A stretch of DNA of 32,161 bases from Thermoanaerobaculia bacterium (GCA_050745345.1 JBOGJK010000257.1:1-32161); one strand, 5' to 3'; shown: positions 6,018-28,695, numbered from the stretch's first letter. Notes: generated by a model from the letters alone, not told the origin. Program-made: numbers and translations.

Positions 6018-6042
6018 ACGGAGCGAGCCAGGAAACGGTTCC

Positions 6043-7287: not shown

Positions 7288-7811
7288 CCGAGAAGCGCGC
7301 TCGATGGGTGGCGCCCGCTCTCGGCGTTCTGGTTCCCTTCATGATCACCGCGGCGGTGGTCGCCTTGCTTCCCTACCACGGGCCGACGAAGCCGGTCCGC
7401 CAGCCGATCGCCTTCAACCACCGCAAACACGTCGAGGAGGCCTCGCTGTCCTGTTCGACCTGCCACCAGTTCTACGAGACGGAGGCCTTCTCCGGGCTTC
7501 CGGCTGCCGACGTCTGCGCGGTCTGCCACCTCGAGCCCCAGGGCAAGAGCGCCGAGGAGCGCGAGCTTGTCCGGCTCTTGAAGGCGGGCACGCCGCTCGA
7601 CTGGAAGCCGCTCTTCCGCCAGCCGTCGCACGTGTACTCCTCGCATCGGCGCCACGTCGTGGTGGCCAAGCTCGACTGCCCGGTCTGCCACGGAGAGATC
7701 GGAAAGAGCAGGGAGCCGCCGTCGCGGGTGCGGCGCCTGGTCATGGAGGACTGCCTCGACTGCCACCGCCGCCGTGGCGTGTCGGCGGAATGCACGACGT
7801 GTCATCGATGA
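7284..7811 (+). CDS. Membrane-anchored pentaheme cytochrome c (c3/c7 class III type; ActA/QrcA-like position)
   Basis: ATG at 7284 overlaps the upstream stop (ATGA). N-terminal TM helix VAPALGVLVPFMITAAVVALL. Five CxxCH motifs (CSTCH, CAVCH, CPVCH, CLDCH, CTTCH) in 175 aa, plus IAFNHRKH. Confidence 0.8.
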   Translation: MTEKRARWVAPALGVLVPFMITAAVVALLPYHGPTKPVRQPIAFNHRKHVEEASLSCSTCHQFYETEAFSGLPAADVCAVCHLEPQGKSAEERELVRLLKAGTPLDWKPLFRQPSHVYSSHRRHVVVAKLDCPVCHGEIGKSREPPSRVRRLVMEDCLDCHRRRGVSAECTTCHR

Positions 7812-7830
7812 GCGACTTGTGGAGCGTGTG

Positions 7831-10257: not shown

Positions 10258-10259
10258 GC

Positions 10260-10961
10260 ATGGCGCGCTGGGCGATGGTGATCGATCTAGACCGCTGCAC
10301 GGCTTGCCAGGCCTGTGTTGTGGCGTGCCAGGCCGAGAACAATGTCCCGCCCGCCGGGCCGGAGCGCGCCGAGAGGGGTCGCGCGATCTCCTGGCTGCGA
10401 CTGGTTCCTTTCCAGGGAGGGGAGCACGGGACGGGGCCGGAGCTGCGGCTGGTGCCACTGCCGTGCATGCACTGCGAGCGCCCCCCGTGTACCCGCGTCT
10501 GCCCCGTGAAGGCGACGCAGATCGACCGGGAGGGCCTCGTCTCCCAGGTCTACCCCCGCTGCATCGGGTGCCGCTACTGCACGACCGCCTGTCCCTACAC
10601 GGTCCGCTATTTCAATTGGGATCGCCCGCAGTGGCCGCGCCCCATGGAGGACAGCTTGAGCCCGGACGTCTCGGTGCGGCCCAAGGGCGTCGTCGAGAAG
10701 TGCACGTTCTGCCACCACCGCCTGCAGCGCGCGCGCGACCGGGCCCGGGCGGAAGGCCGGCCGCTGCGGGAAGGCGACTACGTTCCGGCCTGCGTCGAGA
10801 CGTGTCCCGCGGAGGCGATGGTCTTCGGAGATCTCGACGATCCGCGCAGCGCCGTCTCCCGGCTGTCGCAGGGGCCGCGCGCCTTCCGGCTGCTCGAGGA
10901 GCTGGGGACCCGGCCGAAGGTCGTCTACCTGTCGAAAGGAGAATGGGGTGGAGAAGTTTGA
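10260..10961 (+). CDS. Four-cluster [4Fe-4S] ferredoxin-type subunit (PsrB/NrfC/ActB2/QrcC-like)
   Basis: ATG at 10260 follows AGGAGG. Four Cys groups: CTACQACVVAC, CMHCERPPCTRVCP, CIGCRYCTTACP and CTFCH...CVETCP. Confidence 0.85.
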   Translation: MARWAMVIDLDRCTACQACVVACQAENNVPPAGPERAERGRAISWLRLVPFQGGEHGTGPELRLVPLPCMHCERPPCTRVCPVKATQIDREGLVSQVYPRCIGCRYCTTACPYTVRYFNWDRPQWPRPMEDSLSPDVSVRPKGVVEKCTFCHHRLQRARDRARAEGRPLREGDYVPACVETCPAEAMVFGDLDDPRSAVSRLSQGPRAFRLLEELGTRPKVVYLSKGEWGGEV

Positions 10962-12288
10962 GCTTGGCGAGGATGCCCGGCTGCTGCGCCCGATCGAGCG
11001 GACGGGCCGCGCCTTCCGGATCAGCACCGCCATCCTGCTCTCGATCGCGGCCTGGGGCGTCTTCGCCTATCTCTCGCAGCTGCGCCGCGGCCTCTCGGTC
11101 ACCGGCCTGAACGTTCCCGTCTACTGGGGCCTTTACATCACCAACTTCGTCTTCTTCATCGGCATCAGCCACGCCGGCACGCTGATCTCGGCGATCCTGC
11201 GGCTAGCGCACGCCGAATGGCGCCGCTCGATCACGCGCTCGGCCGAAGTGATAACGGTCCTGGTCCTCTGGTTCGGCATGGGATGCGTGATTCTGGACCT
11301 CGGGCGGCCGGACCGGGTCTTCAACATCCTGCGCCACGGCAACTTCACCTCGCCGCTCTTGTGGGACGTCGCCTCGATCGCGACCTATCTGACGGCCAGC
11401 ACGATCTACCTGTATCTGCCGCTCATCCCCGACATCGCCATTCTGCGCGACAACTTTCCGGGCCGCAAATGGCTCTACCGCACGCTGGCCCTCGGCTGGA
11501 CCGGCACGCCGCGGCAGCAGCGCCTGCTCAACCGGGCGATTGCCGCGATGGCGGTCATCGTGATCCCGATCGCCGTCAGCGTTCACACCGTCGTCTCCTG
11601 GGTTTTCGCGATGACGGTCCAGCCGATGTGGCACTCGACGATCTTCGGACCCTATTTCGTCGTCGGCGCCATCTTCTCGGGGATCGCCGCGATTCTGATC
11701 GCCATGGCGATCATCCGGCGCGCCTACCACCTGGAGGACTACCTCAAGCCCGTGCACTTCAACAACCTGGGGCTCCTGCTCCTCGTCATGACCCTGCTCT
11801 GGTTCTACTTCACGTTCGCCGAGTTCCTCACGACTTACTACGGGGGCGAGCCGTCCCACATGGTGATCTTCCTCTCCAAGACGGAGGGCCGCTTCTCGCC
11901 TCTCTTCTGGACGATGGTCGTGACGTGTTTCGTGGTTCCCTTCGCGATGCTCGCGAACAACCGGACGCGCGGGACGGTCTGGGGGACCGTGACGGCCGCG
12001 GTCTCGGTCGAGATCGGCATGTGGCTCGAACGCTTCCTGATCGTGGTTCCGAGCCTCTCGAATCCGAGACTTCCCCTGACGGCGGCCACCTACACGCCCT
12101 CCTGGGTGGAATGGTCGCTGATGGCGGCGTTCGTCGCAACCTTCATCTTCCTCTACTCCGTCTTCTCCAAGCTCTTCCCGATCGTCTCGATCTGGGAGAT
12201 CCACGAGGGGCGCGAGAAGTCTTTGGAGGAAGTCAGCACGCGGGTTCAGAGCTACCTTCCGGCGGCCGTGGGGGCGGGACATGAGTAA
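10948..12288 (+). CDS. NrfD/PsrC-type polytopic quinone-interacting membrane subunit (ActC/QrcD-like)
   Basis: GTG at 10948 follows AAAGGAGA and overlaps the FeS gene. The 446-aa protein is strongly hydrophobic, with GLNVPVYWGLYITNFVFFIGISHAGTLISAILRL, typical of NrfD-family subunits. Confidence 0.8.
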   Translation: MEKFELGEDARLLRPIERTGRAFRISTAILLSIAAWGVFAYLSQLRRGLSVTGLNVPVYWGLYITNFVFFIGISHAGTLISAILRLAHAEWRRSITRSAEVITVLVLWFGMGCVILDLGRPDRVFNILRHGNFTSPLLWDVASIATYLTASTIYLYLPLIPDIAILRDNFPGRKWLYRTLALGWTGTPRQQRLLNRAIAAMAVIVIPIAVSVHTVVSWVFAMTVQPMWHSTIFGPYFVVGAIFSGIAAILIAMAIIRRAYHLEDYLKPVHFNNLGLLLLVMTLLWFYFTFAEFLTTYYGGEPSHMVIFLSKTEGRFSPLFWTMVVTCFVVPFAMLANNRTRGTVWGTVTAAVSVEIGMWLERFLIVVPSLSNPRLPLTAATYTPSWVEWSLMAAFVATFIFLYSVFSKLFPIVSIWEIHEGREKSLEEVSTRVQSYLPAAVGAGHE

Positions 12289-13534
12289 CCGGCCCCGCTC
12301 GTCGGCCGCGGCCGGTGCGCTCGTGCTCGCCGCCCTGCTCGTGGCGGCGCTGGCCCGCGCCGAGTTCGGCGACCCGGTCCGCGGCCAATCGCTCTTCGTG
12401 GAGAAGGGGTGCGTCCAGTGCCACGCGGTGCGCGGCACGGGCGGGCGCATCGGGCCGGACCTGGGCCGCACGGCGGTCAAAGGCTCCTTCTTCGAGCTGG
12501 CCGCGGGCATGTGGAACCACTCGCAGGTGATGGGGCGCAAGATGGAGGAGAACCGAATCATCCGGCCGTCCTTCAAGGAGAGTGAGCTCGGCGACCTGAT
12601 CGCCTTTCTCTACTTCCTCAACTATTTCGACGAGCCGGGTGACCCGAAGGTCGGCAAGGTGCTCTTCGCGCAGAAGCACTGCATCCAGTGCCACCGGATC
12701 GGCCGGGAAGGGGGGACCGCGGGCCCCGCGCTGGACCGGCTCGCCCGCGGCACGGCGCCGCTGCGCATCGCCCAGGACCTGTGGAACCACGGCCCGGTGA
12801 TGGTGCCCGCCATCCGGCGGCTGGGCATGGACGTGCCCAAGTTCGAAGGCAGCGAGATCGTGGATCTCTTCGGATATCTGCGCAGCCAGGGGCAGCGCGA
12901 GACGGCGCGGGAGTTCCGGTCGGCGGGCGATCCGAATCGCGGCAGGGCGCTCTTCGCGAGCAAGGGTTGCGCCCGGTGCCACGCCATCTTCGGCCGCGGC
13001 TCGGCTATCGGCCCGGACCTCGGCAAGGCGGAGCTGCGGGGCAGCGTCACGCAACTGGCGGGTAGGATGTGGAACCACTGGCCGGCGATGGCCGAGGCGA
13101 TGGCGACGCTGGGCATGGCGCCGCCGACGTTTCACGAGGAGGAGATGGCGGATCTTTTCGCCTATCTCTTCCTCTCCCGCTACGGCGGGCGGCCGGGAGA
13201 CGTAGCGCGCGGCGAGGCGATCTACCGGACGAAGGGCTGCGCCTCCTGCCACGGGCACCGCGGCGAGGGCAACGTCGGACCCGCCCTGCGCGCGGTCGCC
13301 GCCGGCCAGCCCAAGGAGGGCATCGTCCAGCAGATGTGGAATCACGCGCCGGCCATGGGCGAAAAGATGAGCGCGTACGGAGTGCCCTGGCCGCGCCTCG
13401 AGGCGGACGATCTGGCCAACCTGATCGCCTTTCTCGCCCGCGGCTGGCAGCCCCCGGACGCCACGAGCGATTCGCCTCGGCCCGCTCGAGGGCGTTCACA
13501 CGCGCCGTCGCGACAAAGGAGAGACAGCCCATGA
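12281..13534 (+). CDS. Secreted cytochrome c built from four tandem monoheme domains (paralog of 6043..7287)
   Basis: Cleavable-looking signal (LVAALARA/EF). Four CxxCH motifs (CVQCH, CIQCH, CARCH, CASCH), each followed by a WNH motif (MWNH, LWNH, MWNH, MWNH). GQSLFVEKGCV is shared verbatim with domain 2 of the upstream paralog. Confidence 0.8.
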   Translation: MSNRPRSSAAAGALVLAALLVAALARAEFGDPVRGQSLFVEKGCVQCHAVRGTGGRIGPDLGRTAVKGSFFELAAGMWNHSQVMGRKMEENRIIRPSFKESELGDLIAFLYFLNYFDEPGDPKVGKVLFAQKHCIQCHRIGREGGTAGPALDRLARGTAPLRIAQDLWNHGPVMVPAIRRLGMDVPKFEGSEIVDLFGYLRSQGQRETAREFRSAGDPNRGRALFASKGCARCHAIFGRGSAIGPDLGKAELRGSVTQLAGRMWNHWPAMAEAMATLGMAPPTFHEEEMADLFAYLFLSRYGGRPGDVARGEAIYRTKGCASCHGHRGEGNVGPALRAVAAGQPKEGIVQQMWNHAPAMGEKMSAYGVPWPRLEADDLANLIAFLARGWQPPDATSDSPRPARGRSHAPSRQRRDSP

Positions 13535-14106
13535 AAACCTTTCGGTGTTCGTTCTTCCTCGCGGGCGGACTCGCGCTTCTCCTTTCCGCGTGGGCGGGAG
13601 CCAGGACTCCCTCCTACGCGGGAGCAAAGAAGTGCAAGATGTGCCACCTCAAGCAGTTCCAGACGTGGGAGCAGACGAAGATGGCGAAGTCCTTCGAGCT
13701 GCTCCGTACCGGCGTCGCGGCCGAGGCCAAGAAGAAGGCCAACCTCGATCCTCAGAAGGACTACACGCACGACGAGAAGTGCCTCGCCTGTCACACGACT
13801 GGCTACGGCAAGCCCGGCGGATTCGTCAGCGTCGAGAAAACGCCGGAGCTGGTGGGGGTGCAGTGCGAGTCGTGCCACGGGCCGGGCAGCGAGTACCTGA
13901 AGGAAGGAGCAATGACGCTGAAGAACAGGGAGTACAAACGCGCCGAAATGGTCAACCTCGGCCTGGTCTTGATCGACGCGGAGACATGCACCTCACAATG
14001 CCACAACAACAGGAGCCCCTTCGTCGGGAAGGACTACGTCTTCAACTACGAGCAGCGCCGCACGCAGGGAACGCACGAGCACGTTCCTCTGAAGTTCGAG
14101 CATTAG
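13531..14106 (+). CDS. Secreted small multiheme cytochrome c (c554-like), 3 CxxCH + 1 CxxxCH
   Basis: ATG at 13531 follows AAAGGAGAG and overlaps the upstream stop (ATGA). Signal peptide present. Motifs CKMCH, CLACH, CESCH and CTSQCH. Confidence 0.75.
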   Translation: MKTFRCSFFLAGGLALLLSAWAGARTPSYAGAKKCKMCHLKQFQTWEQTKMAKSFELLRTGVAAEAKKKANLDPQKDYTHDEKCLACHTTGYGKPGGFVSVEKTPELVGVQCESCHGPGSEYLKEGAMTLKNREYKRAEMVNLGLVLIDAETCTSQCHNNRSPFVGKDYVFNYEQRRTQGTHEHVPLKFEH

Positions 14107-14145
14107 TCTGTCTAGTTCGGGCTATCTGTTGACAGATTGGGGCCC
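14104..14145 (+). repeat. Copy B of the conserved ~42-nt intergenic element
   Basis: TAGTCTGTCTAGTTCGGGCTATCTGTTGACAGATTGGGGCCC aligns to 2816-2857. CTGTC/GACAG is retained. In the TAGTC/GGCTA stem the A-to-G difference turns a T-A pair into a T-G wobble. The element starts on the stop codon of the preceding cytochrome gene. Confidence 0.7.
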
Positions 14146-14233
14146 GAGGCGCTGTGGCAGCGAAGAGCGGGACACGCTCCGCGAGTGGGTCATTGTCGGC
14201 GGAGCCTGCGCGAACGGGGGGCCGCCCGATAGC

Positions 14234-15126
14234 GTGCCTCGAGGGGCTCCTCGAAAAGACCAGCCGCACCTTCGCGCTCTCCCTTCCGGTTCGGCCCGAG
14301 CCGACCCGGCACGAGTCATGATCGCGTACCCGCTGTTCCGCATTGCGGACACCTTCGAGGACGCCGCGCACTGGGAGCGTGGAAGCCGCATCGCGGCGCT
14401 CTCCGAGTTCCGGGCGCTTCTGGCGGCGTACTCGCGGCCGCAGGCCGAGCGGCTGTCCGGCAAGTGGAGCGCCGCCGGCCCATCCGCGCATGCGGGCTAC
14501 CGGGAGCTGATCGCCGAGGTCCCCTTCGTCCTGAACGCCTTCTTCGCCTTGCGCCCCGACGCGGTCGAGCCCGTGAGGGCCCACGTGATTCGTTCGGCGG
14601 AAGGCATGGCCCGGTACGTCGCGCGCACCCGCGGGAAAGCCCCCGTGCTCTCGAACCTGCCGGACCTGAAGGCCTACTGCTATGTCGTGGCCGGGATCGT
14701 CGGGGAGATGTTGACGGAGCTCTTCTTGCTCGGGCGGCCCGGGCTGCAGGCAATCGCCCCCTTCCTGAGGGAGCGGGCTTCGACCTTCGGTGAGGCGCTG
14801 CAGCTCACCAACATCCTCAAGGACTCGGCCACGGACGCCTCCGAGGGGACCTTCGGGCCGGTGTGCCTCGAGCCGAGATCCTCGCCCTGGCGCGGCGGGA
14901 CCTCGAGACCGCGGCGGCCTATATCGCCAGGCTCCAGTCCGCCGCCGCGCCGCAGGGCCTGGTCGAGTTCACGGCCCTGCCGGTACTTCTGGCACGGGCG
15001 TCCCTCGACCTCATCGAGAGGCGGGGACCGGGCTCGAAGATCAGCCGCCCGCAGGTCTTTCTGCTGACGCAGCAGTTGAAGCGCGCGCTCGACCGGGGAG
15101 AGCCGGCGGTTCCGGCCGGGGCGTAA
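14234..15126 (+). pseudogene. Frameshifted second copy of the squalene synthase gene
   Basis: Long stretches are near-identical at nucleotide level to 1644-2555. The N-terminal LLEKTSRTFALS coding sequence is in a different frame from the MIAYPLFRIADTFED body: one base is missing at about 14316 (cacgagtcatg versus cgtgaggtgatg). A net 7-nt loss near 14847-14865 removes the GRRYLP motif and shifts the C-terminal third into the frame of ORF 14863..15126. Confidence 0.7.
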
Positions 15127-15161
15127 GAACGGCGAAAGCGCGGGAATTCACGGAACGCCAA

Positions 15162-15191
15162 TTGATGCAGATACACCAGTGCCCTTAGGAT
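15162..15191 (+). promoter_or_regulatory. Possible sigma-70-type promoter in the only AT-richer gap upstream of the mtrC-like gene
   Basis: TTGATG (15162-15167), an 18-nt spacer, then TAGGAT (15186-15191). It sits 43 nt before the ATG at 15234, which carries a GGAGG SD. Both hexamers are weak matches. Confidence 0.25.
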
Positions 15192-15233
15192 GCGCCATCG
15201 AATAATCGGTTTCGAATCTCCGGAGGTGGTGCC

Positions 15234-17330
15234 ATGACGGCAAACCGCGGCGTCCTTCTGGCGGCGGGATTTCTCGCTCTGGTTCCGCTCTCGACCGGGG
15301 GTCCCCGAGCGCCACGCGCGCTCGACCCGCGCGGCCCGTCGGCACAGGCCTATTCGCCCAGCGCAAAAGAGTTCTACATGACCGAAGACGAGATCGGCTA
15401 CATCCGGCCGGGCTTCCACATCACCGTCAACTCGATCACGATCCCGGAGGATCGCCGGCCGGTCGTGGACCTCTCCTTCACCGACGACTTCCAGCAGCCG
15501 CTCGACCGGCTGGGGCAGGTGACGCCGGGACCGCTTTCGATCAGCCAGGTGCTGGCCTGGTGGGACGCGGGGACCCGGTACTACACGGCCTACACGACAC
15601 GGGTCCAGAAGAGCCCGATCACCAACGTCTCCGCCACACAGGCGGCCGCGGACTCGGGAGGAACGTGGACGGACCTCGAGATCGGGCACTCGATCTACAG
15701 GTTCCGGACCGTGCTGCCCGCCGGATTCGACCAGACCAAGACGCACACGCTGGCGATCTACGCGACCCGCAACATGGCCGGGATCCAGGAGAAGAACTAC
15801 TACGACAACGTGGAGTACGACTTTCGTCCCGACGGCGCAGCGGTCACCGAGGTCTGGGACAAGACCTCGGAGGGCATCTGCAACCGGTGCCACGACCTGC
15901 TTGCCCTGCACGGCGGGTCCCGGCAGGAGGTCAAGCTCTGCGTGACCTGTCACAACCCGCAGACCACCGACCCGGACACGGGCAACACCGTGGACATGAA
16001 GGTGATGGTTCACAAGATCCACCGGGGCGAGAACCTGCCGAGTGTCGAGGCCGGCAGGCCTTACCAGATCATCGGGTTCAACCAGGGCGTCAACGACTAC
16101 TCCACCGTCGTCTTCCCGCAGGACATCCGTAACTGCGTCCGGTGCCACACGGAACCGGCCACCCAGAACGCCAACTACTACACGTTCCCCGCCCGCGCGC
16201 CCTGCGGCGCCTGCCACGACGACATCAACTGGACCACGGGGGAGAACCACGCCGGCGGGCCGCAGGCGGACGACTCGGCCTGCTCCTCCTGTCATCGGCC
16301 GCAGGGTGATCGGGAATGGGACGCTTCGATCCTGGGGGCGCACACGGTTCCCTACAAGTCCACGCAGCTCAAGGGTCTGAACGCGGAGATCCTGTCCGTG
16401 TCCAATGCCGTGCCCGGCCAGAAGCCGACGGTCACCTTCAAGATCACGGAGAACGACGCCACGCCCGTTCCACCCGCCTCCTTCACCACGCCCACGGGAG
16501 GGAGCAACCTCAACCTGCTCCTGGGCGGCCCCACCACGGACTACGCCATCAACCCGCGGCGGGAGCGCGCCGACGGGGCGAGCTTCAACGGCACGATCGC
16601 GACCTACACCTTCAACAACGCAATCCCCGCGAACGCCACGGGCACTTGGGCCTTCTCGATCGAGGCGCGCCGCACGGTCACGCTCGACCCGGCGCCCCAC
16701 GACAGCCCGACGATCACGGAAGGGGCCTTCAACCCTGTTTACTACGCCTCCGTCTCGGGCGGCACGCCCGTCGCACGGCGCGCCGTGGTGGATCTGGCCA
16801 ACTGCAACACGTGCCACGATCGGCTCGTGCTCCACGGCGGACAGCGCCTGAACACCGAAGAATGCGTGATGTGCCACAACCCGAACGCGAGTGACGTGGC
16901 GCGGCGTCCCGCCGACAAGGCGCCCGTCGAGTCGATCGACTTCAAGCGGATGATCCACCGGATCCATACGGGCGAGGAGCTGACGCAGGACTACACGGTC
17001 TATGGGTTCTTTACTCCACCGAATCCGCCCAATCCGATCAACTTCAACGAAGTGCGCTTCCCCGGCGACCGGCGCGACTGCGAGACGTGCCATGTCCCGG
17101 GCGCCCAGCAGGTGCCTGAAGATGAGGCGCTCGCCACGCGCCTGCCGACAGTCACGCTGCGGGACTGGTACACGCCGACACAGCCGGTCGCCGCCGCCTG
17201 CCTCGGCTGTCACGATGAGCGCCACGTGGCGGCCCACGCGTACGTCATGACAGCGCCCTTCGGTGAGGCCTGCGCGGCGTGTCACGGGCCGGAGGCGGAG
17301 TTCTCCGTCGACGAGGTTCACGCTCGGTAG
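15234..17330 (+). CDS. Decaheme cytochrome c, OmcA/MtrC-family-like (two heme-free domains alternating with two pentaheme domains)
   Basis: Ten CxxCH motifs in two groups of five. Residues 1-215 are heme-free, then five motifs, then about 170 heme-free residues, then five motifs. Both groups open with the same signature (CNRCHDLLALHGG..CVTCHNP and CNTCHDRLVLHGG..CVMCHNP). A signal peptide is present but has no lipobox Cys. Confidence 0.75.
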   Translation: MTANRGVLLAAGFLALVPLSTGGPRAPRALDPRGPSAQAYSPSAKEFYMTEDEIGYIRPGFHITVNSITIPEDRRPVVDLSFTDDFQQPLDRLGQVTPGPLSISQVLAWWDAGTRYYTAYTTRVQKSPITNVSATQAAADSGGTWTDLEIGHSIYRFRTVLPAGFDQTKTHTLAIYATRNMAGIQEKNYYDNVEYDFRPDGAAVTEVWDKTSEGICNRCHDLLALHGGSRQEVKLCVTCHNPQTTDPDTGNTVDMKVMVHKIHRGENLPSVEAGRPYQIIGFNQGVNDYSTVVFPQDIRNCVRCHTEPATQNANYYTFPARAPCGACHDDINWTTGENHAGGPQADDSACSSCHRPQGDREWDASILGAHTVPYKSTQLKGLNAEILSVSNAVPGQKPTVTFKITENDATPVPPASFTTPTGGSNLNLLLGGPTTDYAINPRRERADGASFNGTIATYTFNNAIPANATGTWAFSIEARRTVTLDPAPHDSPTITEGAFNPVYYASVSGGTPVARRAVVDLANCNTCHDRLVLHGGQRLNTEECVMCHNPNASDVARRPADKAPVESIDFKRMIHRIHTGEELTQDYTVYGFFTPPNPPNPINFNEVRFPGDRRDCETCHVPGAQQVPEDEALATRLPTVTLRDWYTPTQPVAAACLGCHDERHVAAHAYVMTAPFGEACAACHGPEAEFSVDEVHAR

Positions 17331-17360
17331 GAGCGGTCGCTTGACCGCTCCTCCCTTTTT
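17330..17360 (+). terminator. Intrinsic terminator/attenuator-like hairpin between the mtrC-like and mtrA-like genes
   Basis: GGAGCGGTC-gctt-GACCGCTCC is a perfect 9-bp stem with a 4-nt loop, followed by TCCCTTTTT. It starts on the last base of the stop codon. The next start codon is at 17380. Confidence 0.6.
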
Positions 17361-17379
17361 CCGGAAGGACTGAGGTGGG

Positions 17380-18300
17380 ATGAGGCGCCGAGGCTCTCTT
17401 CCGCTTGCCGCGGCGGCGCTGGCCGCCGGGCTCCTTTCGGCGGGCAGCGTTGCGCGGGCGGAGGCTCCTGCTCCGACGCCCGGCGCCGGTCCGGCCGAGC
17501 CGCCGAAGTGCGCCGATTGCCACGAGGAGCAGGTGAAAACCTTCGCCGGCAACCCGCACGCCCGGTACTCGCACCGCGACAAGAAACCGGACCCCAACGA
17601 GATCTGCGCGACCTGCCACGGTGACGGCGCCAAGCACATTCAGGAGGGGGGAGATCCAAAGTTCATCCAGAGTTTCGACGGCGTCGCGGGGGCCGAGCTG
17701 TGCCTCTCCTGCCACGAGAAGAGCGACGAGCACGCCTCCTTCTCGACCGGGTTCCACGCCAACTCGGCCGCGGTGAACTGTCTGTCGTGCCATGCGATCC
17801 ACGGGGCCGTGAGGTCTAGCGAGCAACTGCTGGCGAAGACCCCCGGGCAGCTTTGCCAGAGCTGCCACACGGGCATTTCCGCCGCGCTTCGCAGCAAGCC
17901 CTACGTCCACCGGCTCGACCGGGGCGGGATGACGTGCCTCGACTGCCACGATCCGCACGACCGGAAGGGGCGGAGCGTCAAGTTGACGCGGGAAGGGGAG
18001 CTCGCCTGCCTGGAATGCCATGCGGAGAAGCGCGGCCCCTTCGTGTTCGACCACGTCACCGGCTCGGCCGGGGACTGCCTCTCCTGCCACGAGTCGCACG
18101 GGTCGAACAATCCGAAGATGCTTCAGTGGGCGCGCGTGGACAAGCTCTGCCTCTCCTGCCACTCGCAGACGGGAGGGCCGCCCACGGCGGGCGGGCAGCC
18201 CCCCTCCTTCCACGATCTGACGCTTCCGCGCTACCGCAACTGCACGACGTGCCACGTCGCGGTGCACGGGTCGAACCTGTCTCCGATGCTGCTGAAGTAG
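17380..18300 (+). CDS. Periplasmic decaheme cytochrome c, MtrA/DmsE-family-like
   Basis: Signal peptide ending ARA/EA. Ten evenly spaced CxxCH motifs in 306 aa, and a C-terminal CTTCHVAVHGSN resembling the MtrA-family ending. GAGGTGG SD. Confidence 0.8.
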   Translation: MRRRGSLPLAAAALAAGLLSAGSVARAEAPAPTPGAGPAEPPKCADCHEEQVKTFAGNPHARYSHRDKKPDPNEICATCHGDGAKHIQEGGDPKFIQSFDGVAGAELCLSCHEKSDEHASFSTGFHANSAAVNCLSCHAIHGAVRSSEQLLAKTPGQLCQSCHTGISAALRSKPYVHRLDRGGMTCLDCHDPHDRKGRSVKLTREGELACLECHAEKRGPFVFDHVTGSAGDCLSCHESHGSNNPKMLQWARVDKLCLSCHSQTGGPPTAGGQPPSFHDLTLPRYRNCTTCHVAVHGSNLSPMLLK

Positions 18301-18306
18301 GACCGT

Positions 18307-20259
18307 ATGCGACGAGCCGTCCGCCTGCCGTCTGCCGCCCTGGCGCTGCTCCTCGGAGGCGCGCCTGCCCTCGAGGCCGAAGAGATCCCGGTGGAGTTCG
18401 AGCTCGGCTACCGCTTCGTGGATGTCTCGGGCAACGAACAGATGTACCGCACGCAGATCAACGACCGGCCGGGGGTGCTGCTGCGGTCCCTCTCCTGGGA
18501 CTCGACGGCCCCCCCGAGTCGCTTCTTCGATTACGCCCACCTCGACGTTTCCGACGTGGGCGCGGGCCCCGCCGGGATGCTGCGCTTCCGGGCGGGGCAG
18601 GTGGACACTTTTCGGCTCTCCTTCACCTGGCGGCGCACGAACCTCTACAGCGCGCTGCCGGCATTTGCCAACCCGTTTCTGGAGGAGGGGATCGTCCCCG
18701 GCCAGCAGAGCTACAACCGCGTGCGCGACATCTACGACGCGACACTCGAGATCTTCCCGGGCAAGAAGTTCACGCCGATCCTCGGCTACACGCGTAACGT
18801 CTATGGAGGCCCGGGACGCACGACCTACCACGTCGGGGAGAACGAGTTCGCCCTGGACCAGGAGGTCCACTCCCGTGACGAGGAGTACCGCGTGGGCCTC
18901 GCCTTCGACGTCGGGCCGGTCCGGGGTCAGGTCATCCAGGGGTGGCGGCGCTACCGGTGGGACGACACGGCGACGCTGCGAGCGGGCGAGAACGACGGGA
19001 ACATCTCTTTCCCGATCCTCGGCCAGGAGATCACGGCCGACGGCATCGATCGGACGACCGAGAACCGCACCAACACGCCGGTCACCAGCGTCTGGGTCGC
19101 GGGCCAGCCGCTCTCGCGGGTCAAGCTCGTCGGAAGTTACGTCCGCGCCGACGCGAGCGGTGAAACGACCTCAACCGAGGAGGACGCGGGCAACTTCGTC
19201 TCCTTCCAGATTGCCCGTTTCTTCAAGGGGCTGGAGGAGACGATCAGCGCGCAGGCCGACACGGAGTACTGGCGCGGTTCCGTGCGCGCGGACGTGAACC
19301 TGGCGCCCAACGTCGATTTCACGGGCGGCTGGACGGAGAAGAGCCGCACGCTCGAGGGCCAGGCCCTGCTCTCGAGCCTGTATCTGGACACCGTGACCTA
19401 CGGCGGCATCGCCGTCGGCGACCTGCTCCAGGCGATCCAGGACGACACGGCGCTCGACCGGACCGACCGCACGTTCGACGCGACGGTGACGGCGCGGCTG
19501 ATCGGCCCCCTGGCGGCCAACGCGGGATGGTCGCAGACCCGTCAGAACGTGACGTTTTCCGGCGGCGGCTCCGAGCTGCTGGCGGAGGAGGCCGGGGAGG
19601 AGTTCACCCGGACGGTCAACACCTTTGGCGCCGGCTTCACGTTCTCGAAGGCCGGCCTGACGCTCGCGGGAGACTACCGGCGCGACGATGCCAATCGGCC
19701 GATCCTTCGGACCGATTTCGCGGACCGCGACCGCTTGAAGTTCCGCGTCGCCTACTCGTGGAAGGACCTGCTCCGACTCGGCGGAACCTGGCGGGAGGCC
19801 CGCGCCGACAACAACGTTCCGCAGATCGGCTACGAAACGAGGGTGCGCGAGGTCGCCGGAGACCTGGAAGTCGGCCCGATCGGGAAGATTCTGACGCTCC
19901 GTGCCTCGGCCGGTGAGTTCCGGGTGGACCGCGAGATCCTGATCCGAGTGCCTCAGGACTTCGACATCGTGCCCACGGTCCAGAAGGAGATCGGGCACAC
20001 GTGGGAGGGAGGGCTGCGGCTGGCCTGGCAGCGGCTCCTCGTGGACGGCGCGTACCTCTGGATGGGCAACGGCGGCTCCATTCCCTTCACGATCAACCGG
20101 GTGCGCGCCCGCGCCGAATACGGCATCCGGCCGAACATCGGGGTCGTCGGCGAGTGGCTCCGGGACCAGTACAGCGAGGACCCCGCCTTCGACCAGGCCG
20201 GACCGCTCGCCGACTACGACGCGAACCGGTACGGAATCTTCATCCACTGGCGGCCGTGA
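18307..20259 (+). CDS. Outer-membrane beta-barrel protein, MtrB/PioB-family-like
   Basis: Starts 7 nt after the decaheme gene. Signal peptide, 650 aa, no heme motifs and no Cys. Many short amphipathic stretches rich in aromatic and charged residues (YRFVDVS, FRLSFTWRR, YRVGLAFDV, LKFRVAYSW) and an aromatic C-terminus (GIFIHWRP). The call relies largely on context and composition. Confidence 0.6.
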   Translation: MRRAVRLPSAALALLLGGAPALEAEEIPVEFELGYRFVDVSGNEQMYRTQINDRPGVLLRSLSWDSTAPPSRFFDYAHLDVSDVGAGPAGMLRFRAGQVDTFRLSFTWRRTNLYSALPAFANPFLEEGIVPGQQSYNRVRDIYDATLEIFPGKKFTPILGYTRNVYGGPGRTTYHVGENEFALDQEVHSRDEEYRVGLAFDVGPVRGQVIQGWRRYRWDDTATLRAGENDGNISFPILGQEITADGIDRTTENRTNTPVTSVWVAGQPLSRVKLVGSYVRADASGETTSTEEDAGNFVSFQIARFFKGLEETISAQADTEYWRGSVRADVNLAPNVDFTGGWTEKSRTLEGQALLSSLYLDTVTYGGIAVGDLLQAIQDDTALDRTDRTFDATVTARLIGPLAANAGWSQTRQNVTFSGGGSELLAEEAGEEFTRTVNTFGAGFTFSKAGLTLAGDYRRDDANRPILRTDFADRDRLKFRVAYSWKDLLRLGGTWREARADNNVPQIGYETRVREVAGDLEVGPIGKILTLRASAGEFRVDREILIRVPQDFDIVPTVQKEIGHTWEGGLRLAWQRLLVDGAYLWMGNGGSIPFTINRVRARAEYGIRPNIGVVGEWLRDQYSEDPAFDQAGPLADYDANRYGIFIHWRP

Positions 20260-20301: not shown

Positions 20302-20589
20302 ATGAGAATACGGAGTTCACGGCTTGCTTTGACGGCGGCGCTTCTCTTCTGGGGAGGGTGGGTCGCGTTCTCAGGATCGTCCTCGGCCTCGCTCGACACC
20401 CAGAAGCAGGCGAAGGCGGCCGGCGTCGACGCGAAGAACTGCCTGTACTGCCACGTCGACAAGCTGCCCAAGAAGGAAGCGCATGAGTTAAACGACGCCG
20501 GCAAGTGGCTCGTGGCCGAGAAGGAGAAGCGCAAGGCCGACAAAGTCGACGGCGCCTGGTTGAAGGACTATCCCGGCGGCAAAAAGTAG
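20302..20589 (+). CDS. Small (95 aa) mono-CxxCH protein, Lys/Glu-rich; tandem paralog 1
   Basis: AAGGAGGA SD, N-terminal hydrophobic segment and a single NCLYCH motif. The C-terminal WLVAEKEKRKADKVDGAWLKDYPGGKK is conserved with the next gene. Confidence 0.7.
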   Translation: MRIRSSRLALTAALLFWGGWVAFSGSSSASLDTQKQAKAAGVDAKNCLYCHVDKLPKKEAHELNDAGKWLVAEKEKRKADKVDGAWLKDYPGGKK

Positions 20590-20619: not shown

Positions 20620-20907
20620 ATGAGGAGAGCGGCTTCGAGGCTGGGTCTCGCGGCGCTCCTGCTGAGCTGGTCCGGTTGGCTTCTTCTGACCGGAACCTCC
20701 TCGGGCACCCTTCCCATGCAGAAGAAGGCCAGGGAGCTGGGCTTCGCGGCGGAAAACTGCCTCTACTGCCACGGAGAGAAGTTGCCGAAGAAGGAGGCCG
20801 TCTCATACAACGACCGCGGCAAGTGGCTGATCGCGGAAAAGGAGAAGCGGAAGGCTGCGGAAGTCGACATGGCCTGGCTCAAGGACTATCCGGGCGAGAA
20901 GAAATAG
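20620..20907 (+). CDS. Small (95 aa) mono-CxxCH protein; tandem paralog 2
   Basis: GGGAGG SD and the same length as the preceding gene. 60 of 95 residues are identical by manual alignment, including NCLYCH, KLPKKEA, GKWL.AEKEKRKA and AWLKDYPG. Confidence 0.7.
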   Translation: MRRAASRLGLAALLLSWSGWLLLTGTSSGTLPMQKKARELGFAAENCLYCHGEKLPKKEAVSYNDRGKWLIAEKEKRKAAEVDMAWLKDYPGEKK

Positions 20908-21025
20908 CGCCCGAGTGTCTCCGCGCGCCGTCGCAAGCGGCGCACCCGGGAGGGCGATCGCCCGTCCGGAGGTCGCCGGCGTCGCGGCTGCAACGCGCCT
21001 GCGGCGGTTCTTTCGACGGAAACCG

Positions 21026-22270
21026 ATGAAGCTCCCACTGGCCGTCGTTGCCTTGTCCTTGGCTGGCGCCTCGCTCGCGAACGCGGCGGAGCCGGTCGGA
21101 CCCCCGCCGAACGAAGACTGCCTCACATGCCACGGGGAAACCGACGCCAGCCGCTCCGACGGCCGATCGGTGTTCCTCGCCAAGGAGAAGTTCGCCTCAT
21201 CGGTCCATGGCGAAGCCGGTCTGGCCTGCGTGGACTGCCATGCGGATCTCGCGAAAGCGAGGGAGTTTCCGCACGCCGAGAAGCTCGCCCCGGCGCAGTG
21301 CGCGAGCTGCCACGGCGACGTCGTGTCGGACTACGGAAAGAGCGTGCATGCCGACGCGCGCCGGAAAGAAGGCGCGAGCCTCGCGGCCAGCTGCGCCGAC
21401 TGTCACGGGTCCCACGACATCCGGCCCTCCAAGGATCCCGCGTCTCGAACCTATGCCCTGAACCTGCCCTCGACCTGCGCAAACTGCCACGGCAATCCCG
21501 ACGTGATCCGGAAGGGGCACATCGCGATCGGCAACGTCGCGGCGCTCTACGAGGACAGCATCCATGGCCGCGCCGTCTTGAAGAGCGGTCTCGTCACGGC
21601 GCCCAACTGCAAGACTTGCCACGGGATGCACGACATCCGCCGCGCCGCCGACCCGGCGGCCAGGGTCTTCCGCGGCAATCTTCCGTCCAACTGCGGATCG
21701 TGCCACCAGGGCATCCTCCGCCTCTATGAGCAGGGCATCCACGGCACGCTCTTCCGCGGGGGCGACAAGCGCGTTCCCGTCTGCACCGATTGCCACACGG
21801 CGCACGACATCCGCCAGGTGGAGGTCCAGGGATGGCGCCTGGAGGTCCTCAGGGAATGTGGAACCTGCCACGGGGAGCCGCAGGAGACCTTCCGGGATAC
21901 GTACCATGGACAGGTGACGAACCTCGGCTTCGAGCGGATCGCCACCTGTTCCGACTGCCACAGGGCTCACGACATCTTTCCCGAGGCCGACCGGCGCTCG
22001 ACGGTCTCGGCCGCCGGGCGTGTCGCGACGTGCCAGAAGTGTCACCCCGGAACCAATGAGAAGTTCGCCCTCTACGATCCGCATCCCAACCCGAAGGACC
22101 GCTCGCGCAACCCGCTCCTCTTCTACGCCGCGATCTTCATGAAGTGGCTGCTCATCGGCGTCATGGCGTTCTTCGGGCTGCACGCGGTCCTCTGGTTCCC
22201 GCGCTCCTGGCGCGCCCGGCGCGAGGGCGATGGCTCGGAGCCGCCGGCCCGGAAGGGAGAGAAAAAATGA
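21026..22270 (+). CDS. 11-heme cytochrome c with C-terminal membrane anchor
   Basis: Start chosen at the ATG giving a signal peptide (MKLPLAVVALSLAGASLANA/AEP). Eleven CxxCH motifs, several in the recurring form CxxCHGxHDI. C-terminal TM helix LLFYAAIFMKWLLIGVMAFFGLHAVLWF. Confidence 0.75.
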   Translation: MKLPLAVVALSLAGASLANAAEPVGPPPNEDCLTCHGETDASRSDGRSVFLAKEKFASSVHGEAGLACVDCHADLAKAREFPHAEKLAPAQCASCHGDVVSDYGKSVHADARRKEGASLAASCADCHGSHDIRPSKDPASRTYALNLPSTCANCHGNPDVIRKGHIAIGNVAALYEDSIHGRAVLKSGLVTAPNCKTCHGMHDIRRAADPAARVFRGNLPSNCGSCHQGILRLYEQGIHGTLFRGGDKRVPVCTDCHTAHDIRQVEVQGWRLEVLRECGTCHGEPQETFRDTYHGQVTNLGFERIATCSDCHRAHDIFPEADRRSTVSAAGRVATCQKCHPGTNEKFALYDPHPNPKDRSRNPLLFYAAIFMKWLLIGVMAFFGLHAVLWFPRSWRARREGDGSEPPARKGEKK

Positions 22271-23106
22271 CGGGCGACGCCTCGGCGGGAACCCTCCGGC
22301 GCTACGTCCTGCGGTTCGACCGGTTCGACCGCTTTCTCCATTTCCTGTTGATGGTCACCTTCCTCGGGCTCTCGCTGACGGGGCTGCCGCTGCTCTTCTC
22401 GACACACGGCTGGGCCGCCGTGCTCGCCCGTCTGCTCGGCGGGTTCCGCGGCGCGGGGTTGCTCCATCGGACCTTCGCCGTGGGCATGCTCGCCTGCTTC
22501 GGGATGCACCTCGCGCGGCTCGCCTACCGCCTCCTCGCCAGGCGGGACTGGGGGATTCTCTGGGGCCCGCACTCCATGGTGCCTCAGCCCCGGGACTTCG
22601 TTCAGCTCTTCCAGAACTTCCGCTGGTTTCTGGGCCGCGGCGCGCGGCCGAAGTTCGACCGCTACACCTACTGGGAGAAGTTCGACTACTGGGCGGTCTT
22701 CTGGGGCATGGGGATCATCGGCGGCTCGGGGTTGATCCTCTGGTTCCCGAAGTTCTTCGCCCGGGTCCTGCCCGGCACGGCGTTCAACCTGGCCCTCCTC
22801 ATCCATGGAGAGGAGGCGCTGCTCGCCGTCTGCTTCATCTTCACGATCCACTTCTTCAACAGCCACCTGCGGCCCGAGAAGTTCCCGATCGACAGGGTCA
22901 TCTTCACCGGCGTGGTTCCCGAGGAGGAGCTGCGCCACGAGCGCCCGGCGGAGTACGAGCGGATCCGGGAGAGCGGGCGCCTCGAGGGTCTCATTTCGGA
23001 GCCGCCGACAGCGACCGTGCTCAAGCGGGCCAACATCTCGACCGCCGTCGCCGTATCCTTCGGTCTCGTGCTCGTTTTGCTGACGATCTTCGCGCTGCTA
23101 GGCTAG
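22267..23106 (+). CDS. Membrane b-type cytochrome (FdnI/HydC/Ni-hydrogenase cytochrome b-like)
   Basis: ATG overlaps the upstream stop (ATGA). Multiple TM helices carry conserved-looking His residues (FLHFLLM, LLHRTF, LLIHGEE, IHFFNSH). No CxxCH. Confidence 0.7.
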   Translation: MTGDASAGTLRRYVLRFDRFDRFLHFLLMVTFLGLSLTGLPLLFSTHGWAAVLARLLGGFRGAGLLHRTFAVGMLACFGMHLARLAYRLLARRDWGILWGPHSMVPQPRDFVQLFQNFRWFLGRGARPKFDRYTYWEKFDYWAVFWGMGIIGGSGLILWFPKFFARVLPGTAFNLALLIHGEEALLAVCFIFTIHFFNSHLRPEKFPIDRVIFTGVVPEEELRHERPAEYERIRESGRLEGLISEPPTATVLKRANISTAVAVSFGLVLVLLTIFALLG

Positions 23107-23163: not shown

Positions 23164-24618
23164 ATGGCCAAGGCATCCCGCGAGCGGGTATCGGGCCTTC
23201 TCCGGCCGGCGGTCTTCTTCACTCACAACGCGATCTCCCAGATCGGCGTGATCCTCACGACGAGCGCGGCCGTCACGCTGCTCGCCTTCTGGGCGTACCT
23301 GATCGTGCAGGCCCGGCCCGTGCACCCCTACACCGGCATCGTCTTCTTCTTGATCCTTCCCGGCGTCTTCGCCCTCGGACTCCTCCTGATTCCGCTCGGC
23401 GCCATCCTGCGCCGCCGGAAGCTTCGCGCCCGGGGAGAGCTGCCCCACGAATATCCGAAGATCGACCTCCGCAGCCCCTCTCTGCGCCGGGCGCTCCTGC
23501 TGGTCGCGGGCCTGACCTTCGTCAACTTCGCGATCATGGGAGCGGCCTCGTACAAGGGGGTCGAGTACATGGATTCGGCTCAGTTCTGCGGGCAGACCTG
23601 CCACACGGTCATGTCCCCCGAGTACACGGCCTACGTCAACTCGCCTCACTCGCGGGTTGCCTGTGTGGAGTGCCACATCGGGCCGGGGGCGCCCTGGTTC
23701 GTGAAGGCGAAGATCTCCGGCGTTCGCCAGGTCTTCGCCGTCACTCTGAAGACCTACAGCCGGCCGATCCCTTCGCCTGTCCGGGAGCTTCGGCCCGCGC
23801 GGGAGACCTGCGAGCATTGTCACTGGCCTCAGAAGTTCACGGGCGACAAGTTCCTCGTGCGCACGAAGTACGGCGACGACGAGCAGAACACGCCGTCGAC
23901 GACGGTTCTGTTGCTGAAGATCGGCGGGCGGACGGCCCAGGGGTTGGTGGGCATTCACGGCCGGCACCTCGACACGATCGAGCGGATCGAATACCTGTCC
24001 ACCGATGGCCGCCGGCAGGTCATCCCGAGGGTGGCCTACGTCGACGACGATGGAAAGAAGGTGGAGTACGTTTCGACCGACGTGAAACCCACACCGGAGC
24101 AGCTCGCCCGCGGAGAGCGCCGCAAGATGGACTGCATGGACTGCCACAACCGGCCCACGCACGCCTTCGAGATGCCGGAACGGGCCGTCGACACGGCCAT
24201 GACCGACGGCCGGATCAGCAAAGACCTGCCTTACATCAAGAGAGAGGCTGTGGCGGCGTTGCGCGCCGAGTACCCCAATCGCGCGACGGCGTCCGAGCGG
24301 ATCCCCCGGACGCTGGTCGAGTTCTACCGGACGAAGTATCCGCAGGATTATCAGAACCGCCGGGCTTCCGTCGAGGCGGCTTCCGACCAGGTCAAGGCGA
24401 TCTATCTGCGAAACGTCTTTCCGGAGATGCAGGTCACCTGGGGGACGCACCCGAACAACATCGGCCACGAGGACTTCCTCGGCTGCTTCCGCTGCCACGA
24501 CGGAAAGCACAAGAGCTCCGACGGCCGCGTCATCAACGACGACTGCGAGGCGTGCCACCAGATCCTGGCGATGGAGGAGAAAGAGCCGAAGATCCTGGCG
24601 GACCTCGGGCTGAATTGA
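23164..24618 (+). CDS. Membrane-anchored hexaheme cytochrome c with NapC/NirT-like N-terminal heme block
   Basis: GAGGAGG SD and three N-terminal hydrophobic helices. Motifs CGQTCH (CxxxCH), CVECH, CEHCH, CMDCH, CFRCH and CEACH. The spacing of the first motifs, with ...ACVECHIGPG...K.SG...ETCEHCHWP, resembles quinol-dehydrogenase NapC/NirT/NrfH relatives. Confidence 0.7.
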   Translation: MAKASRERVSGLLRPAVFFTHNAISQIGVILTTSAAVTLLAFWAYLIVQARPVHPYTGIVFFLILPGVFALGLLLIPLGAILRRRKLRARGELPHEYPKIDLRSPSLRRALLLVAGLTFVNFAIMGAASYKGVEYMDSAQFCGQTCHTVMSPEYTAYVNSPHSRVACVECHIGPGAPWFVKAKISGVRQVFAVTLKTYSRPIPSPVRELRPARETCEHCHWPQKFTGDKFLVRTKYGDDEQNTPSTTVLLLKIGGRTAQGLVGIHGRHLDTIERIEYLSTDGRRQVIPRVAYVDDDGKKVEYVSTDVKPTPEQLARGERRKMDCMDCHNRPTHAFEMPERAVDTAMTDGRISKDLPYIKREAVAALRAEYPNRATASERIPRTLVEFYRTKYPQDYQNRRASVEAASDQVKAIYLRNVFPEMQVTWGTHPNNIGHEDFLGCFRCHDGKHKSSDGRVINDDCEACHQILAMEEKEPKILADLGLN

Positions 24619-25672: not shown

Positions 25673-25762
25673 GCCTGATCTTTGCCGACTCCGTGATCGG
25701 GCGCGCGCCGGCGCCCCTGCGGAGGCGATTTGCGCGGAGGAGAGGACGGCCGAAACGACGCC

Positions 25763-27709: not shown

Positions 27710-28695
27710 ACGAGGCTCGCCCCGTGGAGCCGCCGATCGAGAAGCTGCTCGTCGCGGGCTTGCGCGGCTTCTGCGCCGGGGTCGTCCGCGCGATCGACGT
27801 CGTCGAGAAGGCGCTCGAGGTGTGCGAGGGACCCGTCTACGTTCGCAAGGAGATCATCCACAACCGGTACGCCGTGGACGAGTTGCGGAGCAAGGGCGCC
27901 CACTTCGTCGAAGAAGTGGACGACGTGCCGGACGGCGCCTGGCTGATCTACTCGGCGCACGGCATTGCGCCGTCGGTCCGGGAGAGCGCACGCCGCAAGC
28001 GCCTCCGGACGATCGACGCCACCTGCCCCCTGGTCACGAAGGTGCACCTGGAGGCGATTCACTACGCGAATCAGAATTACACAATCATCCTGATCGGCCA
28101 CGAGGACCACGATGAGACGATCGGGACGCTGGGCGAGGCGCCCGATTCGATCCGCCTCGTCGGGACCCGGGAGGAGGCGGAGGCGGTCGAGGTCCCCGAT
28201 CCCGACCGGGTCGCGTACCTGACCCAGACGACGCTCTCGCTCGACGACACCCGGGAGATCGTCGAGGTCTTGAAGCGCCGATTTCCGAGGCTCGCCCGCC
28301 CCGCCAAGGACGACATCTGCTACGCGACCCAGAACCGCCAGGACGCGGTGAAGGCCATGGCGCCCTTCGTGGACCTGCTGCTCGTGCTGGGAGCGCCCAA
28401 CAGCTCGAACTCCCTGCGGCTCTGCGAGGTCGCCCGCGATCAGGGCGTGCCCTCGCACCTGATCGAGCGGGCCGAGGACATTCGTCCCGAGTGGCTCTCG
28501 GGCGTGCGGGTCCTGGGCCTGACCGCCAGCGCCTCGGCCCCCGAGATCCTGGTCCAGGAAGTGGTCCGCTACGCGCGGGAGAAGCTCGGCGTGCGCGAGG
28601 TCGAGGAGTTCGAGACGGTCAAAGAGCACGTGAGCTTCTCGCTTCCGCAAGAGCTCAAGACGCTCTTGAGGCCCGCCTCACGGGAAGCGGTTTGA
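27703..28695 (+). CDS. ispH: 4-hydroxy-3-methylbut-2-enyl diphosphate reductase
   Basis: Overlaps the dxs stop. Motifs GFCAGVVRAI, EIIHN, TCPLVTKVH, GHEDHDETIG, QTTLS, ICYATQNRQ and GAPNSSNS. Confidence 0.9.
   Translation: MVNEARPVEPPIEKLLVAGLRGFCAGVVRAIDVVEKALEVCEGPVYVRKEIIHNRYAVDELRSKGAHFVEEVDDVPDGAWLIYSAHGIAPSVRESARRKRLRTIDATCPLVTKVHLEAIHYANQNYTIILIGHEDHDETIGTLGEAPDSIRLVGTREEAEAVEVPDPDRVAYLTQTTLSLDDTREIVEVLKRRFPRLARPAKDDICYATQNRQDAVKAMAPFVDLLLVLGAPNSSNSLRLCEVARDQGVPSHLIERAEDIRPEWLSGVRVLGLTASASAPEILVQEVVRYAREKLGVREVEEFETVKEHVSFSLPQELKTLLRPASREAV

Follow-up and report, generated by a model that had tools for sequence, protein, structure and literature searches.

The window analyzed here is a 32,161-nucleotide (nt) contig with 67% GC from the metagenome-assembled genome (MAG) of a Thermoanaerobaculia bacterium (Acidobacteriota). 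Three consecutive genes on its plus strand very probably encode a porin-cytochrome conduit of the MtrCAB type. The mtrC-like gene (15234..17330) encodes a 698-amino-acid (aa) outer decaheme cytochrome of the OmcA/MtrC family, which has a putative signal peptide and no lipobox Cys. The mtrA-like gene (17380..18300) encodes a 306-aa decaheme cytochrome predicted to be periplasmic and inserted in the barrel, and the mtrB-like gene (18307..20259) encodes a 650-aa, Cys-free protein that is annotated as "hypothetical" and is predicted to form a 26-strand outer-membrane beta-barrel. The original prediction for this stretch, made from the sequence alone, had described an mtrC-mtrA-mtrB arrangement. 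The open reading frames (ORFs) lie exactly at these coordinates, all on the plus strand and in the C-A-B order known from Shewanella. The GC content at third codon positions (GC3) is 0.88 to 0.90 in all three ORFs, a value typical of this GC-rich contig, and the ORFs can thus be taken as real genes. The mtrC-like and mtrA-like genes are separated by 49 nt, and the mtrA-like gene is separated from the barrel gene by 6 nt.

The 698-aa protein is a full-length member of the OmcA/MtrC family. It matches TIGR03507 at 488.8 bits (cutoff, 209.3) over profile positions 4 to 672 of 672 and PF22113 at 179.8 bits in two stretches; sequence matches include MtrF (3pmq, E = 3e-34) and OmcA, and the NCBI name of the protein is "OmcA/MtrC family decaheme c-type cytochrome." Its 10 CxxCH motifs form two blocks of five (residues 216 to 353 and 524 to 683), each preceded by a heme-free stretch, and the two halves open with the same duplicated signature (CNRCHDLLALHGG...CVTCHNP and CNTCHDRLVLHGG...CVMCHNP). 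Both the layout that had been read from the sequence (heme-free, five hemes, heme-free, five hemes) and the shared signature at the start of each half are therefore present. All 20 Cys residues belong to CxxCH motifs, and 107 of 120 homologs likewise have no additional Cys. An AlphaFold2 model, computed from 44 homologs and without hemes, has an overall predicted local distance difference test score (pLDDT) of 67. DSSP divides it into a beta region (residues 62 to 197), a helical heme region (215 to 370), a second beta region (383 to 506), and a second helical heme region (521 to 696), in keeping with the motif layout. When this four-domain model was compared with the PDB by Foldseek, the 16 best matches were all OmcA, MtrC, UndA, or MtrF structures (E = 3e-23 to 1e-10; template modeling [TM] score up to 0.60), and these were the only significant ones, the hits beyond them being noise.

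The 306-aa protein is an MtrA/DmsE-family cytochrome. It carries 10 CxxCH motifs, matches TIGR03508 (DmsE family) over profile positions 4 to 257 of 258 (197.2 bits; cutoff, 192.2), and matches the MtrA chain of the solved Mtr complex (6r2q_A) with an E value of 1.4e-31.

The 650-aa protein is a very divergent relative of MtrB/PioB, a relationship that is detectable only by structure and by a two-step profile bridge. It contains no Cys anywhere, its NCBI name is "hypothetical protein," and its close homologs, which number in the hundreds, are almost all unnamed. Pfam returned no match even at E ≤ 10 (PF11854 was not reached), NCBIfam returned none (TIGR03509 was not reached), and no PDB sequence was matched by phmmer with the single sequence or by a 41-sequence profile. 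Its AlphaFold2 model (pLDDT, 78.3; predicted TM score, 0.73) has 26 beta-strands by DSSP, the same number as MtrB, which is also its top Foldseek match (6r2q_B; E = 2.9e-15; TM score, 0.62/0.62; 11% identity). The next matches are 22-strand TonB-dependent transporters with TM scores of at most 0.47. Judged by strand count, the modeled barrel would be large enough to sheathe MtrA, in agreement with the wide barrel that had been proposed.

The profile bridge runs through a clade of distant relatives. A profile search with the barrel in 1.8 billion representative proteins returned 880 relatives, one of which, P0389, scores 22.8 bits against PF11854 (MtrB_PioB), just below the cutoff of 23. P0389 belongs to a clade made up mostly of Bryobacterales and other Acidobacteriia, one member of which carries the NCBI name "MtrB/PioB family" (P0442; 32.6 bits against the same cutoff). 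All 17 selected members of this clade (A3) match PF11854 at E ≤ 0.01, the best at 1.9e-11, and hhalign aligned the profile of the window barrel (A1) with that of A3 over 578 columns at a probability of 100% and an E value of 1.1e-40. Ten Bryobacterales-type barrels taken from related loci gave PF11854 matches that were all below threshold in a Pfam scan, and PDB sequences searched with the A3 profile of Bryobacterales barrels yielded no MtrB. We assign the 650-aa protein to the MtrB/PioB relatives because the fold, the profile-profile bridge, and the synteny agree, while a direct match to the family models is lacking.

That synteny extends well beyond the window. When one genome per species was scanned, MtrC-like relatives turned up at more than 574 loci, and the locus counts given here refer to the best 80 of these. 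The MtrC proteins of these 80 loci are 44 to 68% identical to that of the window, and all come from Acidobacteriota (Thermoanaerobaculia, Holophagae, Bryobacteraceae/Solibacter, Terriglobia, and Blastocatellia). An MtrA homolog adjoins mtrC in 65 of the 80. The same order of MtrC, a ten-heme MtrA-sized protein, and a homologous barrel encoded directly after the mtrA-family gene, as in the window, is found in at least 57; many of the other loci are contigs that end just past mtrC. All 58 of 58 syntenic barrels match both barrel profiles at 89 bits or more. These barrels form two clades, one of Thermoanaerobaculia and Holophagae and the other of Bryobacterales, Terriglobia, and Blastocatellia; the window barrel belongs to the former, which no longer reaches PF11854. 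The C-A-B arrangement is common across Acidobacteriota and has in part been published already.

The claim that the MtrC-like subunit is not a lipoprotein also stood, and it proved to apply clade-wide. There is no Cys upstream of heme 1, that is, none before residue 216, and none of the 120 closest MtrC homologs has an N-terminal Cys; the sole pre-heme Cys residues among them are at positions 144 and 150 of a single protein. The 80 loci hold 82 MtrC ORFs, 52 of which lack pre-heme Cys residues even in their longest possible version; in the others, such residues lie mostly in upstream extensions that are spurious. Canonical lipoboxes (ILVG↓C, LLAG↓C, LVIG↓C, and LLLG↓C) occur in only 4 of the 82, all from Solibacteraceae/Terriglobia: one in locus L063, two in L066, and one in L072. 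The copies in L063 and L066 are not followed by mtrA and a barrel gene, which hints that the lipid anchor is kept only by free-standing OmcA-like paralogs, a sample far too small to establish the point. The clade-wide absence of the lipobox is real. It leaves the membership of the protein in the OmcA/MtrC family intact, because the lipobox is a trait of the Shewanella members that the sequence model does not include.

The N-terminus has a charged start, a hydrophobic run of ~14 residues, and then small residues (..LALVPLSTGG..), and it looks like an ordinary cleavable signal peptide. A cleavable peptide fits better than a membrane anchor, for which such a run would be too short. Residues 23 to 39, which follow it, vary across homologs and have low model confidence. 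We also considered an alternative C-terminal sorting signal and rejected it, as the protein closes with the conserved region of its last heme, whose final residues are HAR.

Downstream of the barrel, the same strand carries a set of genes that could supply the conduit with electrons. Two tandem paralogs (20302..20589 and 20620..20907) each encode a 95-aa monoheme protein with a signal peptide, a single CxxCH motif (CLYCH), and a Lys-rich C-terminus. Neither Pfam nor NCBIfam gave a family above cutoff for these candidate periplasmic carriers, and 11 closely related loci encode a homolog downstream of their barrel gene. They are followed by an 11-heme c-type cytochrome (21023..22270) with an N-terminal signal peptide, 11 CxxCH motifs, multiheme Pfam matches, and a C-terminal transmembrane helix (ORF residues 400 to 418). 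Its stop codon overlaps, as ATGA, the start of a gene for an FdnI/HydC-like membrane cytochrome b (22267..23106) that has transmembrane segments and matches PF01292 and TIGR01583. By architecture, this pair resembles a split CbcL/MtrH/MtoC-type unit, of which the 11-heme protein would be the c-type half. A homolog of the 11-heme protein lies within ~9 kb of mtrC in 27 loci, and a homolog of the cytochrome b is found in 23 loci. In several loci (e.g., L003, L006, L007, L012, and L013), both queries match one ORF, which suggests that fused versions exist.

The last gene of the series (23164..24618) lies 2.9 kb downstream of the barrel and encodes a 484-aa multiheme cytochrome with three N-terminal transmembrane helices (residues 23 to 41, 53 to 71, and 107 to 125), a CX3CH motif (CGQTCH) after the third helix, five CxxCH motifs, and a NapC/NirT N-terminal Pfam match (PF03264). 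ImcH has been described as having three N-terminal transmembrane helices, an atypical CX3CH beside them, five to nine CX2CH motifs, and a NapC/NirT-like region (PMC6295460); compared with that description, the 484-aa protein fits the ImcH architecture. An ImcH-like homolog occurs within ~9 kb of mtrC in 26 of the 80 loci, including those of Bryobacteraceae and Solibacter. The genes between 15234 and 24618 all share one strand, with gaps of 6 to 57 nt and the single ATGA overlap if the 11-heme gene starts at the GTG at 20915; a start at the ATG at 21023 brings the largest gap to up to 115 nt. This tight spacing suggests that mtrCAB is coexpressed with the ImcH-like and CbcL-like genes.

The gap between the mtrC-like and mtrA-like genes holds a stem-loop (17329..17352, plus strand) with a 10-bp GC-rich stem followed by CCCTTTTTCC, a candidate attenuator or mRNA stabilizer. 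It was matched by a scan for terminator-like elements and has a minimum free energy of -29.3 kcal/mol. Stable stem-loops with different stem sequences follow mtrC in related loci, mostly in the Thermoanaerobaculia/Holophagae clade: 49% of the 60-mers after the mtrC stop in related loci have z < -2, versus 3.7% of coding controls. The hairpin may uncouple expression of MtrC from that of MtrAB.

Taken together, these features lead us to favor, as the likelier account though with real reservations, an MtrCAB-type conduit with a nonlipidated surface MtrC held by protein contacts and fed by ImcH/CbcL-like cytochromes. Quinol-pool electrons would probably enter via the ImcH-like and CbcL-like inner-membrane cytochromes and pass through the two small monoheme cytochromes to MtrA, whose 10 hemes would be threaded through the 26-strand MtrB-like barrel and would deliver them to the 10 hemes of MtrC on the cell surface. 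MtrC would there reduce extracellular acceptors, for example Fe(III)/Mn(IV) oxides or humic substances. It would be made with an ordinary non-lipoprotein signal peptide, be exported by Sec, and cross the outer membrane, presumably via a type II secretion system encoded elsewhere, and it would most likely be retained only by protein-protein contacts with MtrA and the loops of the barrel.

The missing anchor is made less paradoxical by engineered Shewanella proteins. A soluble Shewanella MtrC without the lipid attachment site binds purified MtrAB tightly and spontaneously, and the complex so formed cannot be told apart from native MtrCAB, either structurally or in how it moves electrons through a bilayer; the authors took the anchor to be structurally dispensable and probably to serve only to retain secreted MtrC on the cell surface until MtrAB is encountered (Piper et al. 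2021, PMC8415449). We see about an even chance that the MtrC of the window is held on the conduit without any anchor.

Several observations weigh against this account. The heme domains of the MtrC-like model are poorly modeled, and its C-terminal 75 residues have pLDDT values below 50, while the beta domains are confident; weak heme domains are to be expected of a model built without hemes, and they leave the packing of the domains into the staggered cross only moderately supported. The 306-aa protein clears the curated TIGR03508 cutoff by a marginal 5 bits, and the 650-aa barrel fails every direct MtrB sequence model. The signal peptidase I site of MtrC is not obvious (STG↓G), and in several homologs Pro or Asn lies close to where cleavage would be expected. 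Finally, as the original prediction had noted, there are no type II secretion genes in the window among its GC3-supported ORFs.

Other explanations have to be set against the one we favor. That the absence of a lipobox is an artefact of a wrong start codon, a frameshift, or an error of MAG assembly is vanishingly improbable: the contig does come from a MAG, and the neighboring gene at 14129-15126 looks frameshifted, but the mtrC frame is closed by a stop 48 nt before the ATG, the interval contains no Cys codon, a GGAGG motif stands ahead of the start, and a Cys-free N-terminus is shared by 120 independent homologs from many assemblies and by most of the 82 ORFs from 80 species-level genomes. 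The homologs and the upstream stop rule out, for practical purposes, a start-codon error or frameshift that conceals a lipobox. A protein that truly has no lipid or other recognizable anchor (its C-terminus reads ...VDEVHAR, and residues 23 to 39 form a variable, low-confidence linker) might be released, to act as a soluble extracellular decaheme that serves as a diffusible electron carrier or mineral-binding cytochrome and leaves the conduit without a fixed cap. Lipobox-deleted MtrF and OmcA of Shewanella are indeed exported to the medium and reach the culture supernatant (Dietrich et al. 2019, PMC6929479), and the stem-loop after mtrC could let MtrC exceed MtrAB. However, mtrC stands directly upstream of mtrA and the barrel gene in at least 57 of the 80 loci, which argues for MtrC as a stoichiometric partner; the binding of soluble MtrC to MtrAB in vitro is tight (PMC8415449); and the shedding of a 10-heme protein would be costly. 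We consider general release unlikely, although the bound and shed states are not mutually exclusive, and part of the MtrC could be bound and part shed.

Retention inside the cell is a weaker contender still, and we regard it as improbable. The MtrC-like protein would in that case stay periplasmic and pass electrons to MtrA, whether in soluble form or attached to the inner membrane through a signal peptide that is not cleaved, so that MtrA and MtrB alone formed the conduit, as in MtoAB/PioAB. Such systems do function without MtrC (Baker et al., PMC8805035), and a periplasmic location would suit the lack of a lipobox, the lack of type II secretion genes in the window, and the weak signal peptidase I site of many homologs. 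The ~14-residue hydrophobic segment is nonetheless too short for a stable transmembrane anchor; the fold, the heme layout, and the C-A-B order are those of surface MtrC/OmcA; and dedicated small periplasmic cytochromes, the candidate monoheme carriers, are already encoded downstream. The conduit might also run inward and, in the manner proposed for Mto/Pio, draw on Fe(II), a cathode, or a partner cell for its electrons rather than serve metal reduction. Mtr-type conduits are reversible, and CbcL/MtrH/MtoC homologs occur in both oxidizers and reducers (PMC6295460), but here the cluster includes an MtrC cap together with an ImcH-like gene, and to date ImcH homologs are known from Fe(III) reducers only (PMC6295460). 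Moreover, Thermoanaerobaculum aquaticum, a cultured member of the same class, is described as reducing Fe(III)/Mn(IV) (cited in PMC9671151 and PMC8787282), and the window showed neither Cyc2 nor any other marker of Fe(II) oxidation. Inward flow thus seems a rather poor prospect, if one marginally better than periplasmic retention.

The conduit resembles that of Shewanella (S. baltica, 6R2Q; S. oneidensis MtrC/MtrF/OmcA) in its C-A-B order, its decaheme MtrA, and its 26-strand barrel, as well as in a four-domain decaheme outer cytochrome with the duplicated CxxCH-D-x-L-x-LHGG...CVxCHNP signature. Unlike the MtrC, OmcA, and MtrF of Shewanella, the MtrC of the window has no lipobox Cys. A Cys pair controls flavin reduction in Shewanella outer cytochromes, as stated in PMC9973256; because all 20 Cys residues of the window MtrC lie in heme motifs, this non-heme pair is absent. 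The window barrel is only ~11% identical to Shewanella MtrB, falls below all MtrB sequence models, and is free of Cys. Gammaproteobacterial MtrB has an N-terminal CXXC motif, which the Cys-free window barrel would lack. The window also differs from Shewanella in its inner-membrane partners, as it holds no CymA gene and has the ImcH-like and CbcL-like genes instead.

Mtr clusters have been reported before in this phylum. Baker et al. (2022, PMC8805035) described MtrCAB in five Acidobacteriia, their "Group 5" (Bryobacterales and unclassified Acidobacteriia); the survey required detection of all three genes, listed no Thermoanaerobaculia, and never mentions lipoproteins. The window shares with Group 5 the phylum, the C-A-B order, an MtrC that is 44 to 48% identical, and barrels that are homologous over their full length, and most of the Group 5 MtrC copies also lack an N-terminal Cys. 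It departs from Group 5 in that its barrel falls into the separate Thermoanaerobaculia/Holophagae clade, below PF11854. The Group 5 clusters have a tetraheme cytochrome downstream of mtrB, with no inner-membrane quinone oxidoreductase reported nearby (PMC8805035), whereas the window barrel is followed by two monoheme genes and the CbcL-like and ImcH-like genes. In a hot-spring study, a MAG of Thermoanaerobaculum aquaticum was likewise credited with one MtrC and two MtrA, and MtrB goes unmentioned there (PMC9671151). As in MtoAB and PioAB, a decaheme cytochrome of the MtrA family is paired with a barrel of the MtrB/PioB family; unlike those systems, which have no MtrC-type outer cytochrome, the window has one directly upstream.

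The inner-membrane genes recall Geobacter. The 484-aa protein is like Geobacter ImcH, as described in PMC6295460, in its three transmembrane helices, the CX3CH after the third, its five CX2CH motifs, and its NapC/NirT-like region. The CbcL-like unit has 11 hemes and is split into two overlapping ORFs, unlike CbcL of G. sulfurreducens, which has 9 hemes (PMC6295460). In the same 2018 survey, mtrAB genes were not found adjacent to imcH (PMC6295460); in the window, by contrast, an ImcH-like gene and mtrCAB lie on one strand, probably in one operon.

Because acidobacterial Mtr clusters have already been published, this is not a new kind of system. Three findings appear to be novel: that the divergent barrel can be recognized as such, that the lipid anchor and the Cys pair are both missing clade-wide, and that ImcH-like and CbcL-like genes are linked to the cluster. 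A broader proposal, toward which we lean slightly less than we lean away, is that throughout the phylum the MtrC proteins encoded next to mtrAB are naturally anchorless and either retained or deliberately shed, that lipobox-bearing paralogs are free-standing, and that hybrid operons of ImcH/CbcL and MtrCAB have been undercounted by marker models. If so, lipid anchoring would be a lineage-specific addition rather than a part of the Mtr mechanism, and a single operon would couple quinol oxidases of the Geobacter type (ImcH/CbcL) to an MtrCAB of the Shewanella type. An MtrC that naturally has no lipid anchor would be the in vivo counterpart of the engineered soluble MtrC and a test case for the purpose of the anchor, and the ImcH-like gene beside mtrCAB points to a compact hybrid electron-export pathway that could be transferred to other hosts. 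Since the MtrB_PioB models miss this barrel, surveys that need all three Mtr genes will undercount potential metal reducers among the Thermoanaerobaculia and Holophagae.

Several other genes of the window are of a respiratory type. A second respiratory module lies upstream of mtrC, also on the plus strand (7774-14106). It comprises a molybdopterin-type subunit, whose best NCBIfam match is QrcB-like (277 bits, below cutoff); a 4Fe-4S protein (~10260-10961) with two CxxCxxCxxxC motifs; an NrfD/DsrP-like membrane subunit; a tetraheme class-I cytochrome c (12281-13534); and a c554-like cytochrome (~13540-14106). Another class-I-type cytochrome with four CxxCH motifs (5980-7287) resembles the one at 12281-13534.

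Directly upstream of mtrC, a squalene/phytoene-synthase-like gene (14129-15126, plus strand) is apparently frameshifted. Its Pfam match ends at residue 240 of a 312-aa ORF, and a GC3-rich ORF in another frame (14863-15126) seems to hold the C-terminal part of the synthase; the frameshift could be a sequencing error or the mark of a pseudogene. Isoprenoid- and hopanoid-related genes lie on either side of the cytochrome island (18-2555 and 25730-28695), among them an epimerase/dehydratase, a second SQS_PSY gene, DXS, and IspH/LytB.

A PAS histidine kinase and a sigma-54 activator (4438-5817) form a pair at 3128-5817. Because of this activator, we searched for a sigma-54 promoter upstream of mtrC and rejected the idea: the window has 9 matches with two mismatches versus 7.9 expected, none of them in the 15127-15233 gap. 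A scan for sigma-70 promoters gave nothing useful. The same kinase-activator pair is found at locus L025, directly after an MtrC paralog.

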